NCBI GenBank assembly: GCA_951406725.2
Contig: OX597819.1
Location: 77,252,001 to 77,316,000, forward strand
DNA from: Octopus vulgaris
Lineage: Eukaryota
DNA length: 64,000 nt
Reading direction: 5' to 3'
Shown: positions 39,236 to 62,868 of the stretch, piece by piece
How positions within the stretch are numbered: the first letter of the stretch is position 1
Layout of the letters: every line of letters starts with the position of its first letter
The notes under the pieces: generated by a model
What the model was told of the DNA's origin: nothing
What the model saw: the letters and a program-made list of their open reading frames with translations, nothing else
The model's database searches: none
Translations under genes and position numbers: made by a program

Positions 39236-39414
39236 TATACAATATGTTACATTACTCGGTAGTCAAGATAAAACTCTGAGTTTCAGATGCCGAAGTGGAA
39301 ATCCACAACACCATCTCTTCGGTTTAACCGAAGAGATGGTGTTGTGGATTTCCACTTCGGCATCTGAAACTCAGAGTTTTATCTTGACTACCGAGTAATG
39401 TAACATATTGTATA
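39236..39414. repeat. Perfect palindrome, 89-bp arms, 1-nt spacer (39325), with hammerhead-like variant
   Basis: Arms are exact reverse complements; each reads outward CCGAAGA-GATG...CATC-T-GAAA-CTC-A-GAG-TT; (TA)n on the left and shortly after on the right. Confidence 0.9.
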
Positions 39415-39519
39415 GATATATTTCCTCTATTTACATAATATTGAGGTCTCTTTCTTTCTTTTGTTATCTTACCGTTTTATCAATATATATATATATATAT
39501 ATATATATATATACAAAAA

Positions 39520-40017
39520 AATTGGCACGACCACAAACCTGAAGACATTGTCGAAAATAGAAATACAAAGATCCTATGGGATTTTATGATTCAGTGCGAC
39601 CATGAGTTTGAGAATAGGAAGCCGGACATAGTCTTAATTGAGAAAGAAAACAAACTATGCTCGATCATAGATATAGCATGCCCAGCTGACAACAAGATAT
39701 GCGATAAGGAAGAAAGAAAAGTCGAGAGATATGACAGGTTAGCTTGGGAAGTTAAGCAGTTGTGGTCGATGAAAAAGGTAGCAGTAGTACCAATAATCGT
39801 CGGAGCCCTGGGAACAGTGAGCAAAAATCTCGAGAAGTACGTGGAACAAATAGGGGTTGCAATAATGGTGGAACTCTTGCAGAAAACAGCACTGATTGGA
39901 ACCGCTCGAATACTCCGGAAGGTGCTCGAAAAATAAGAGGTGTTACCTTAGTTCACTGACTAGAACAGCTGACACTCTAATACATCTTCAGCATTAGAAG
40001 CTGGGCAAAGGCAATAA
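39520..40017 (+). mobile_element. 5'-truncated non-LTR retrotransposon with restriction-like endonuclease (R4/Dong-like)
   Basis: Open frame NWHDHKPEDIVEN..KILWDFMIQCDH...RKPDIVLI.K....IIDIACP.D......EK..Y..L...VVPIIVGALGTV...LQKTALIGTARILRKVLEK* (stop 39936), short 3'UTR, then (ATA)n. Confidence 0.9.
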
Positions 40018-40740
40018 ATAATAATAATAATAATAATAATAATAATAATAATAGTAGTAGTAGTAGTAGTAGTAGTAGTAGTAGTAGTAGTAGTAGTAGT
40101 AGTAGTAGTAGTAGTAGTAGTAGTAATAATAATAATAATAATAATAATAATAATAATAATAATAGTAATAGAAATAATAATAATAATAATAATCATAATA
40201 ATAATAATAATAACTACAACGAAACAACTCAACACCAGTAGCAACAATAAACAACAACTACACAAACGACAATAATGATAATAATAACAACAATGGCAGC
40301 AACAAAAACAACAACAACAATAACAAAAATAATTCCTAGCTTATGCGAAAAGTCATCTAGTTTTATGTGGAGTATGGTTAATTATAGAGATTCTTGTACT
40401 TTCCTGATAAGGGAAGAAAACAAAAAAATCTACTACAGACACACACACACACACACACACACACACATACACACGCATGCGTGTGCGTGTGTATAAAGAG
40501 AGAGAGAGAGAGCGAGCGAGAGAGAGAAATAAATAAATAAATAAATAAATAAATGTACATATATTGTGGTCAGTGTGTACACATATATATGTATATGTAT
40601 ATAAACAACTTATAAACAAGGGCAAAAGAAAAAAATGCTAATGCCGAATATGCCGAAAATAGACAAATCGTCGATAACCATATAATTCATCACTATAAGC
40701 ACGAATCTCGAAGTAAGCCAACAGAAATTTCAAAAAAATT

Positions 40741-40813
40741 CTGTTATTATCATGTCGGCCCCGATTTCAGAGTTAATTTATAATAATTTTCTCCTCGTCA
40801 GTGATACATACGG
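40741..40813 (-). ncRNA. Mirror hammerhead copy with U16.1>C change, probably impaired
   Basis: Reverse complement reads TATCA-CTGACGA-GGAG...CTCT-GAAA-TCGG-GG-CCGA-CA-TGATA. Confidence 0.6.
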
Positions 40814-40898
40814 TAAGAAATAAATGAAATACTTACTTATACCCATGGGTATAAGTAAGTATTTCATGGGTATAAGTAAGTATTTCATTTATTTCTTA

Positions 40899-40970
40899 CC
40901 GTATATATCACTGACGAAGAGAAAATTCTTATGAATTAACTCTGAAATCGGGGCCGATATGATAATAACG
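40899..40970 (+). ncRNA. Type I hammerhead ribozyme, minimal, intact core
   Basis: Stem I TATCA(40906-10)/TGATA(40959-63) plus distal CCGT/ACGG; CTGACGA 40911-17; stem II AGAG/CTCT with internal AATTC/GAATT; GAAA 40944-47; stem III TCGG-G-CCGA; U16.1-A17, predicted cleavage after A40958. Confidence 0.8.
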
Positions 40971-59045: not shown

Positions 59046-60040
59046 CTATTTCTTTATTACCCAGAAGGGGCTAAACATAGAGGGGACAAACAAGGACAGA
59101 CATAGGTATTAAGTCGATTACATCGACCCCAGTGCGTAACTGGTACTTAATTTATCGACCCCTAAAGGATGAAAGGCAAAGTTGACCTCGGCAGAATTTG
59201 AACTCAGAACGTAATGGCAGACGAAATACCGCTAAGCATTTCGCCCGGCGTGCTAACGATTCTGCCAGCTCGCCGCCTAAAACATACCAATGTTTGTACA
59301 CGCATACACACATACATACACGCATACATGCACACATACATACATGCATACGTGCATACATGTTTGCATACATTATGTGTGTGTTTGTGTTTGTAAGCGC
59401 TGTGTGTAACATTCCTGTAAACAAGGACACTACTGTTAAATTGACGAAAGCTTCGTTCTCTTCCGATATGGCATCGTCTTGAAATACACAAGGAAGGAGA
59501 CCGAGAATTATCAGAACCATCAGTCCTGCTCATATTGAAGGTAAGCCCTTGAACGTAAAGTTTGAGACAAGCATTATTTTAATGGCATAGTCAGAGTAAG
59601 ATCATCTTCTATAACCTTCTGCAAGCAAATCCCTCCGATTTTTGGGCTTTGGGCTATCTTTAGACGGGAGGTTTTATATAAATGCTTGCAACAGAAGGAA
59701 ACCCTATAAAGGCGACGAATTTAGAACGAATCCATTCGACTAGCTTAGAAACTCAGTGACACGGTTTCAGTAGACACCGATATCACGCGAGAAGACACTT
59801 TAATACCTATTTCTTTATTACCCGCAAGGGGCTAAACATAGAGGGGACAAACAAGGACAGACATAGGTATTAAGTCGATTACATCGACCCCAGTGTGTAA
59901 CTGGTACTTAATTCATCGACCCCGAAAGGATGAAAGGTAAAGTCGACCTCGGCGGAATTTGAACTCACAACGTAACGGCAGACGAAATACCGCTAAGCAT
60001 TTCGCCCGACATGCTAACGTTTCTGCCAGCTCGCCACCTT
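59046..60040 (-). mobile_element. Two young SINE A copies (59046-59278, 59806-60040) in the last SERT-like intron
   Basis: Near-identical to each other; TSD-like TAAAACATACC and AGACACTTT.ATACC. Confidence 0.9.
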
Positions 60041-60194
60041 TAATAGACACTTTTATACCACTTTAATAAAGAGTCGCGTCATTGTCAAGCGATTTGTCTT
60101 AACGACATGATACTACTCGTACCGAAAAAACATGGCTAGCGTCAATTAGGGCTGTATAGATGTTGAAATAGAAGTTTAAATGATTAATACTTAC

Positions 60195-60362
60195 CTCACA
60201 CACTGATCCTTCCAATGTGAAGAATTTATATATTATATAAAGCGGAATGCATATTAAAGAAGAACACACTATAATCCAACCAATTCCGATAGACCACGAC
60301 GGGTATTGATAAGTTCCGTACACTGGGCCACTGTCACTCACTACAGATAAAGTGAATAACAT
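60195..60362 (-). CDS. SLC6A4: SLC6/SERT-like exon, TM12 region
   Basis: Acceptor ctccacAG, donor GAG|GTAAGT, 168 nt, phase 0: [60 protein letters not shown]...GW...CSS..CIP.YIIYKFF is close to Drosophila SERT as I recall it. Confidence 0.92.
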
Positions 60363-60489
60363 CTGTGGAGAGGATACAGGAAAAAATATATATATACATA
60401 TTTAATGTCGAAAACAAACATTTCAGCGCCAAAAAATATAAAATAAATTTATACTTTTATTGTTTATGCTTTGCAGAGCTATTTTATGC

Positions 60490-62316
60490 ATACATATATA
60501 TGTGTGCGTACGTACATACATACACATATATATATACATATATATATATATATATATATATATATATATATATATATATATATATATATATATATATATA
60601 TATATATATATATATATATATATATATATATATATATATATATATATATATATATATATATATATATATATATATATATATATATATATACATATATATA
60701 TATATATATATATATATATATATATATATATATATATATATATATATATATATATATATATATATATATATATATATACATATATATATATATATATATA
60801 TATATATATATATATATAATATATATATAATATATATAATATATATATATATATATATACATATATATATATAACATATATATATACATATATATATAAT
60901 ATATATATATATATATATATAACATATATATATACATATATATATATATATATATACATATATATATACATATATATATAATATATATATAATATATATA
61001 TATACATATATATATATATATATATATATATATATATATATATATATATATATATATATATATATATATATATATATATATATATATATATATATATATA
61101 TATATATATATATATATATATATATATATATATATATATATATATATATATATATATATATATATATATATATATATATATATATATATATATATATATA
61201 TATATATATATATATATATATATATATATATATATATATATATATATATATATATATATATATATAATATATATATACATATATATATATACATATATAT
61301 ATATACATATATATATATACACATATATATATATATATATATATATATATATATATATATATATATATATATATATAACATATATATACATATATATACA
61401 TATATATACATATATATACATATATATACATCTATCTATCTATATATATATCTATGTACATATGTGTATATATATATACATATATGTATATATATTTATA
61501 TATGTATATATATATACATATATGTATATATATTTACATATATGTACATATATATATATACATATATACATATATATATATATATATATATATATATATA
61601 TATATATATATATATATATATATATATATATATATATATATATATATATATATATATATATATATATAATATATATACATATATATACATATATATACAT
61701 ATATATACATATATATACATATATATACATATATATATACATATATATTATTATATATATATATATACATCTATCTATCTATATATATATCTATGTACAT
61801 ATGTGTATATATATATACATATATGTATATATATATACATATATGTATATATATTTACACATATATGTACATATATATATATATATATATATATACATAT
61901 ATACATATATATATATATACATATATATATACACATATATATATACACATATATATATATACATATATATATATATATACATATATATATATATACATAT
62001 ATATATACATATATATATATATATACATATATATATATACATATATATATATATATATATATATACATATATATATACATATACATATATATATACATAT
62101 ATATATACATATACATATATATATACATATATATATATATATACATATACATATATATATATATATATACATATATATATACATATACATATATATATAC
62201 ATATACATATATATATACATATACATATATATATACATATACATATATACATATACATATATATATACATATATATATATATATATATATATATATATAT
62301 ATATATATATATATAT
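60490..62316. repeat. ~1.8-kb (TA)n / (TATACA)n compound microsatellite
   Basis: Seen directly; source of the long YI-repeat ORFs. Confidence 0.95.
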
Positions 62317-62411
62317 TCAAATGAATTAGGTACTTAAGTTGAGGCACCAGAATTTAGTACGGTATTATCCATACAACTTCAAAACAATTTCAAAATAAGG
62401 TGATCAAAATC

Positions 62412-62868
62412 AAAATAAGCGACAGGATATTCAGAAGTAATGCAATACGATCGTTTCAAGCGACTCCATTTAATGGAACAACGCAATCATTACATCAATT
62501 TAAATTCAGAGCAATCCTCAGCTGCATAAATACATAGAATTAAATTAAATTAAAACATAAGGACACATTAGTATAATTTTGCCTAAAACCTCCAAGGAGG
62601 TAAGGAGATACACAAAGAACATGCTGTCTTCACTTCAGTTGAGAAGCTACTTCTAAGCTGAAGTGAAGACAGCATCTTCTACGTCTTGGAGGTTTTAGGT
62701 AAAATTATACTAATGTGACCATCTGTTTAATTTAATTTAACTCTATGTATTTATGCAGCCGAGGATTGCTCTGCATTTAAATTGATGTAATGATTGCATT
62801 GTTCAATTAAATTGAGTCGCTTAAAACGATCGTACTGCATTACCTCTGAATATCCTGATGCTTATTTT
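62412..62868. mobile_element. Fold-back element with ~220-235 bp diverged arms, in the SERT-like intron
   Basis: AAAATAAGC...CACTTCAG / CTGAAGTG...GCTTATTTT, centre ~62648; lies between (TA)n tracts; hammerhead motif in each arm. Confidence 0.8.
62440..62527 (-). ncRNA. Type I hammerhead-like motif with long stem II region
   Basis: Reverse complement: ATGCAG-CTGAGGA-(~57 nt)-GAAA-CGATCG-TA-TTGCAT. Palindromic stem III, stem I pairs with one G-U; stem II closure is imperfect. Confidence 0.6.

Follow-up and report, generated by a model that had tools for sequence, protein, structure and literature searches.

What are the long inverted repeats beside (TA)n that carry hammerhead ribozyme sequences in the octopus genome: palindromic elements of a class of their own, or remnants of known retrotransposons? 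We addressed this question in a stretch of 64,000 nucleotides from Octopus vulgaris (GenBank assembly GCA_951406725.2, contig OX597819.1, positions 77,252,001 to 77,316,000 of the forward strand), hereafter the window, in which an initial annotation had described four such fold-backs as non-coding members of a new class. All four inverted repeats were borne out by self-BLAST of the window: element 1 at 39229-39421 (98% identity), element 2 at 40600-41112 (93%), element 3 at 43516-43664 and 43560-43779 (94-98%) and element 4 at 62409-62871 (84%, with one gap). In our reading these fold-backs are very probably head-to-head pairs of 5'-truncated 3' ends of Penelope-like elements (PLEs) from four unrelated families (F1 to F4, numbered as the elements), likely written into (TA)n by PLE proteins with reverse transcriptase (RT) and GIY-YIG endonuclease.

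The absence of similarity between the elements was confirmed, with no significant arm-to-arm match (best E value 0.02). Targeting of (TA)n is supported as well: (TA)n or TA-rich runs are found at or close to all four elements, and element 2 fails a strict (TA)4 test. The elements extend beyond the limits first assigned to them, which missed family-specific 3' tails of ~70-90 nt on one arm each of elements 1, 2 and 4. With the tail, element 1 reaches 39482, element 2 41188 and element 4 ~62320.

In all four families the 3' end of the copies is fixed, with or without the tail, and the 5' end varies; the copies are flanked by TA, and many have an inverted 5' partner. In 19 of 19 F1 pairs and in 11 of 12 pairs of F2 subfamily C (F2C), one arm terminates at or close to the end of the tail and its partner ~50-90 nt before that point, and the arms meet through an overlap of a few bases or a short insert. 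F1, F3 and F4 display the traits of endonuclease-positive (EN+) PLEs, namely pseudo-long terminal repeats (pLTRs), 5' truncation, an inverted 5'-truncated copy and an optional 3' tail. Head-to-head pLTRs of Penelope are described with the same inverted truncated 5' copy, optional tail on one arm and palindrome or microhomology at the junction (PMC3846280). The tails are ~70-90 nt in F1, F2 and F4 versus 30-40 nt in Penelope, and, unlike in Penelope, both arms are so short here that the whole insertion is a hairpin. The head-to-head truncated architecture is a published PLE pattern (PMC3846280, PMC8557442, PMC4209133), and the claim of a new class does not stand.

It is highly unlikely that the fold-backs form a class of their own, non-coding palindromes mobilized as entire hairpins in the manner of miniature inverted-repeat transposable elements (MITEs) or foldback elements. 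Several young F1 loci do share nearly the same centre and are 98-100% identical, as a palindromic master could produce, but the F1 query started at this shared centre, which biased the matches. Centres vary among copies in every family, and single arms as well as full copies bearing open reading frames (ORFs) exist. Where a MITE or foldback DNA transposon has fixed symmetrical termini and a constant interior, these insertions have asymmetric ends (tail versus none) and variable centres.

Protein-coding families behind elements 1, 3 and 4

Elements 1, 3 and 4 had been taken for non-coding derivatives; they are truncated ends of protein-coding PLE families. With broken ORFs read as they lie, F1, F3 and F4 each combine an RT and, following it at the C terminus, a GIY-YIG endonuclease in one element, and this linkage, which had been proposed as a check, supports the PLE origin of the fold-backs. 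First-look searches with the arms returned 2,589 candidates for F2, 2,883 for F4, 852 for F3, 24 for F1 (99-nt query) and 1,500 for an upstream F1 query, figures that are not copy numbers.

Of 20 loci that an RT-thumb query picked up, 18 also carry the arm of element 1, and at one F1 locus (L311) an inverted copy is followed by a direct repeat and ORF fragments, with a second direct repeat 2.9 kb further on. F1 has all four motifs of the Hydra clade: RWK, DKT, a CxCX5C linker and CxxC..E..N..CxH. In F4 the arm was found at 9 of 20 loci identified with a GIY-YIG stretch, downstream on the same strand at five and inverted upstream at four; a 3' untranslated region (UTR) of up to ~1.6 kb separates ORF and arm at the five, and the motifs are DKT (L270, L134), RW(I), a CxCX5C-like linker and CxxC/CxH. 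Insertion into (TA)n and a hammerhead near the 3' end are further traits that both families share with the Hydra clade (PMC8557442). Judged by these motifs, F1 and F4 appear to be of the Hydra-clade type. Nematis was considered for both and dropped after DKT, RWK and CxCX5C were seen, and a putative antisense ORF upstream of F4 proved to be its AT-rich 3' UTR.

The Hydra clade includes Hydra-1_Obim of Octopus bimaculoides, for which a preference for (TA)n and a hammerhead are documented (supplement of Craig et al. 2021, PMC8557442). RWK, DKT, CxCX5C and CxxC/CxH around E and N are common to it and to F1 and F4, and its ribozyme has a near-palindromic helix III and U at position H17, as in F1. 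When compared by eye, F1 and F4 differ from it as other families with other ribozyme sequences and long 3' UTRs; that study records no pLTR for it, whereas F1 has direct and inverted repeats.

Element 1 consists of a left arm at 39240-39324 on the minus strand, which is a 5'-truncated 3' end of F1 without tail (core CCGAAGA at 39316-39322, helix I truncated), and a right arm with tail at 39324-39482 on the plus strand (tail ~39411-39482, followed by (TA)15). The right arm has its core at 39328-39334, GAAA and a near-palindromic helix III at 39366-39378, and U at H17; it belongs to a young subfamily of F1, and other loci share 95-97 nt with it without a difference. This subfamily (L057-L067, L070) counts about nine loci, 98-100% identical and all short fold-backs, in which one arm starts a few bases before the core. 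Such a pattern suggests recent activity together with a stall site or a palindromic master.

Element 4 has a left arm with tail at 62320-62651 on the minus strand, the 3' end of F4, with the core CUGAGGA at 62515-62521 and a palindromic helix III at 62446-62457. Its right arm, at 62650-62871 on the plus strand, carries no tail and a mutated core (CCGAGGA, G12>A), and is followed by (TA)n. An imperfect (TA)n array of 1.8 kb (60526-62316) lies directly to the left of the element.

RT or endonuclease fragments of F3 lie within 1.5 kb of the arm at 6 of 25 loci, and at one F3 locus (L106) an ORF between inverted repeats contains DKG, YLDD, a CX4CxxC linker and GIY-YIG. The endonuclease passes the Pfam cut-off for GIY-YIG (23.5 versus 22.6 bits). 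DKG and a CX2-5CxxC linker before GIY-YIG are motifs of the Neptune clade that are also found in Nematis (PMC8557442), and F3 resembles the Neptune/Nematis PLEs of that study in DKG, the CX4CxxC linker, the C-terminal GIY-YIG, inverted terminal repeats and TA targets. We call F3 Neptune-like, on motifs that Neptune and Nematis share. Element 3 (43524-43879) is made of at least four fragments of the last ~70 nt of F3. It is a doubled structure, a head-to-head pair (centre 43592/43593) duplicated in inverted orientation around (TA)14, and it holds only the 3' half of the ribozyme. In its full form the F3 ribozyme carries the U3-A8 core (17 of 20 distinct arms), and its compensatory base changes are suggestive.

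Three families (F1, L078:1489-1575; F3, L095:1463-1530; F4, window 62522-62524, minus strand) have a CAG preceded by a pyrimidine-rich stretch, either at the ribozyme core or a short way upstream of it. It could be a splice acceptor, by analogy with Drosophila Penelope, where the end of an intron maps to helix I (PMC4209133).

Hammerhead motifs and their density

According to the initial annotation, each arm carries the hammerhead motif, reduced to its 3' half in element 3. Three arms pass a type I descriptor (+39328, with a helix I of 3 bp; +40911, complete; -62521, with an imperfect helix II base) and the rest are damaged or truncated: element 2 carries U16.1>C in its left arm and element 4 G12>A in its right, and element 3 is without a 5' core anywhere. 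In the families, the type I core (CUGANGA, GAAA and UH, or U3-A8) and the three helices are conserved, with C at position 4 in F1 and an imperfect helix II base in F4. Both core halves are present in 34 of 50 distinct arms in F1, 39 of 57 in F2, 15 of 20 in F3 and 16 of 34 in F4.

Minimal hammerheads of PLEs were described by Cervera and de la Pena (2014, PMC4209133) as type I, with a palindromic helix III and a U3-A8 variant, mostly in stray truncated copies and with opposite-strand pairs 100-700 bp apart. The octopus families share with them type I, the palindromic helix III, U3-A8 (F3), truncated copies and opposite-strand pairs; helix III is longer here (6-12 nt).

Could these motifs be chance matches in AT-rich repeats? 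Most arms in the window fail the strict descriptor, and no hammerhead family was found among the 150 matches listed of 438 Rfam matches at E<=10, a search that had been suggested as a check and whose listed matches were microRNA (miRNA) models on hairpins and microsatellites. Set against this, the window contains two motifs with helix I and helix III of at least 4 bp each, compared with a mean of 0.15 in local dinucleotide shuffles, none of which reached that number (0 of 100). A looser half-motif test gave 136 matches versus 81-108 in 20 shuffles. We also applied the descriptor, tuned on the window families, to new sequence in 40 evenly spaced 10-kb stretches of the genome; the 15 motifs in these 400 kb compare with 0 in each of 10 shuffles. 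Moreover, the helices show compensatory changes, and the motif always lies within the PLE terminal repeat. The sample-versus-shuffle count and the covariation refute the chance reading, whose probability we regard as practically nil.

Most of the sampled motifs have a palindromic helix III, and opposite-strand pairs were seen at two loci. The resulting density of one hammerhead per 27 kb (95% range 16-48 kb) agrees with the earlier figure of about one per 16 kb, at the order of one per 15-30 kb. Extrapolation to the 2.8-Gb assembly yields ~59,000-173,000 motifs, about ten times the largest number in PMC4209133 (~9,000, Xenopus tropicalis). Fold-backs of any kind numbered 29 in the 400 kb sampled (~1 per 14 kb), five in the window and none in 40 kb of neighbouring DNA; thus, the window is typical overall in fold-back density. 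Not all of these fold-backs are PLEs. Further hammerhead families with other palindromic helix III sequences were present in the random samples (L230, L231, L242, L244, L247, L256, L263 and L267).

A paper on Octopus vulgaris repeats (PMC13282606) reports 31 recently active PLE families, and a term search of its main text found no occurrence of "ribozyme". Our literature search, which left most subscription papers and Repbase outside its reach, found no paper on a cephalopod retrozyme or on a genome-wide count of cephalopod hammerheads.

The non-coding family F2

Element 2 belongs to a family without a recognizable protein. Its left arm (40600-40843, minus strand) spans positions 155-398 of the unit of F2 subfamily A and contains the hammerhead with U16.1>C; the centre (40844-40888, no strand) is a 21-nt duplication around a short internal palindrome; and the right arm with tail (40869-41188, plus strand) spans unit positions 155-474. 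A complete type I hammerhead motif lies inside the right arm at 40906-40964 on the plus strand (helix I of 5 bp, CUGACGA, helix II of 4 bp, GAAA, helix III of 5 bp), with predicted cleavage after 40959 (AUA).

The F2 unit measures 474, 467 and 499 nt in subfamilies A, B and C, respectively, which are ~80% alike and have the same structure; the longest stop-free stretch in unit B is 69 amino acids. Copies are arranged head-to-tail, with the 3' end of the unit running into its own 5' start, reaching 2.6 units at most (L225). The genome contains 267 exact occurrences of a 21-mer from subfamily C, and among the 100 places listed there are 8 same-strand pairs 497-509 nt apart and 11 close opposite-strand pairs, all 11 of them head-to-head. 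F2C insertions picked by this 21-mer (20 loci, four of which were dropped as the same insertion) have an inverted partner upstream in 12 of 16 cases and a TA run at one or both ends in 14 of 16.

The helices of the F2 ribozyme covary. In an alignment of 53 copies, obtained from 57 rows by removing four that had large gaps or were otherwise irregular, 95.7% of helix cells are paired; in 27 distinct copies the value is 99.4%, with double changes in 5 of 12 pairs. None of 500 shuffles reached the covariation score, and slid registers pair only 33-43%.

Retrozymes have been presented as PLE derivatives (PMC7229834; bioRxiv 10.64898/2026.07.22.740005). Like the non-LTR (lacking long terminal repeats) retrozymes of these sources, F2 is a non-coding, AT-rich sequence with a single type I hammerhead in each unit and forms head-to-tail copies. 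Unlike them, it seldom makes long arrays and is mostly scattered as partial tandems (1-2.6 units) that have inverted partners and TA targets. The F2 unit is covered by contigs from four runs whose RNA origin is a guess; this coverage carries no weight for or against expression, though it pointed to subfamily C.

Alternatively, F2 may be the terminal repeat of an autonomous PLE that was missed, its tandems being pLTR-only insertions and not an independent retrozyme. We consider this unlikely. Our searches scored only the best 40 of 1,100-3,300 candidates each, and retrozymes are reported to derive from pLTRs (bioRxiv 10.64898/2026.07.22.740005). On the other hand, in 110 tiled loci, some of which are the same insertion, before the 5' start of the unit comes either its own 3' end, a copy in inverted orientation or unrelated flanking DNA; the sole PLE ORF adjacent to an F2 copy (L029/L192) is a separate insertion set apart by a TA run; and three subfamilies that are ~80% alike keep one unit structure. 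An apparent fold-back of mixed subfamilies A and B (L162) proved to be two insertions split by a microsatellite. Four F2 copies with shared flanks (L011, L012, L019 and L020, at G000:C8:106.8-107.0 Mb) lie in a tandem segmental duplication beside a receptor-like ORF.

Origin of the head-to-head pairs and its implications

A mechanism consistent with PLE insertion would begin with an endonuclease cut in (TA)n. DNA synthesis would start close to the 3' end of the RNA, at two fixed sites separated by 70-90 nt, one for each side of the cut, and both products would stop early and be joined 5'-to-5' through a few bases. Nearly every stub would keep the ribozyme only because of its location in the terminal repeat. 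The predicted cleavage site is spanned by most arms and shows no accumulation of truncations, which suggests that the template was uncut or re-ligated; copies of more than one unit fit a circular or multimeric template. Cleavage of dimers via a short palindromic helix III has been described (PMC6765202). Full-length or tandem source copies of these families would cleave in this way, and in F2 cleavage would release a unit-length RNA able to circularise.

The window stubs themselves are most likely inert. A read-through transcript had been expected to contain one sense ribozyme, and a sense copy would indeed be made; however, since the arms are head-to-head, the antisense arm is transcribed first, and with 88-98% of the bases of the window stub duplexes predicted to pair, the ribozyme would be masked in the duplex.

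The inverted arm might also arise by self-priming (snap-back) on a single template, possibly an antisense RNA as modelled for Penelope (PMC3846280), a PLE origin being common to both accounts. This is possible, if doubtful. The centres in the window lie on short palindromes or microhomologies, and partner arms are closest to each other in 18 of 18 F1, 13 of 18 F2A, 11 of 14 F2B, 8 of 11 F2C and 4 of 5 F4 pairs. Partner arms, being usually closer to each other than to other copies, probably stem from one source, but two RNAs of one source copy would also give similar arms. In 4 of 11 classifiable F2C pairs the tailless arm reaches further 5' than the tailed arm. Since neither of the two is then contained in its partner, these pairs speak more for two priming events than for simple snap-back of a cDNA; the antisense self-priming model of PMC3846280 is compatible with this pattern too. 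A more far-reaching proposal, which we put forward as speculation with low odds, joins a genome with of the order of 100,000 hammerhead motifs to an F2 circular-RNA retrozyme with the full PLE footprint: palindromic helix III would pair two RNAs in one particle, and both sides of the (TA)n cut would be primed at once, yielding head-to-head hairpins.

Several points count against our interpretation of the fold-backs as PLE ends placed by PLE proteins, or against parts of it. At most 40 of the best candidates were scored per family search, with a bias towards query-like copies. The clade calls for F1, F3 and F4 rest on motifs and not on a tree, and F3 scores below the cut-off for the Pfam RT model RVT_1 (17.9 versus 29.6). 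The base of F4 helix II has U-U mismatches, and the F4 helices are not the minimum-energy fold. The 27 distinct F2 copies come from 30 rows hand-picked across three subfamilies, and kinship among F2 copies inflates one shuffle control of the covariation. No partner protein of F2 was found in searches biased to near copies, and a comparison of F2 with F1, F3 and F4 gave only one 21-nt match. Finally, the predicted cleavage site is no preferred point of 5' truncation, and transcription, hammerhead cleavage and RNA circles in these families are predictions.

The window has other repeats as well. A fifth fold-back (7937-8152, 216 nt), with short terminal inverted repeats between TA dinucleotides and without a ribozyme, is by its look a Tc1/mariner-type MITE, hence a TA-associated fold-back but not a PLE. 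The 3' end of a non-LTR retrotransposon ORF with the look of a restriction-like endonuclease occupies 39514-39960, followed by long (TAA)n/(TAG)n; it has no Pfam match above the cut-off and presumably resembles Dong/R4 elements. SINE-like tandem copies with a period of 160-265 nt, separated by (AAT)n, are found at 15491-16572, 17974-18537, 28593-28891 and 48725-49167, and an element at 9980-10380 has an 86-nt internal duplication and telomere-like GGTTAG repeats.

In summary, the fold-backs are real and mostly of known kinds, within which they represent new members; of these results, F2 and the estimate of motif density deserve follow-up. The extrapolated number of motifs gives the phenomenon a notable scale, and a non-coding family, F2, shows the full footprint of PLE insertion. 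F2 insertions that look like PLE insertions would support the proposal that retrozymes are mobilized by PLEs. The integration of PLEs and the role of their hammerheads are open questions in published work, and material for both is available in this genome: many families, identical copies within a young subfamily of F1, and the PLE-like insertions of F2. In repeat annotation, stubs of this type may be mislabelled as MITEs or microRNA hairpins, as the many matches to miRNA models in the Rfam scan illustrate. At about one per 14 kb, fold-backs would supply long double-stranded RNA in read-through transcripts, and may in this way be relevant to RNA editing and silencing in cephalopods.

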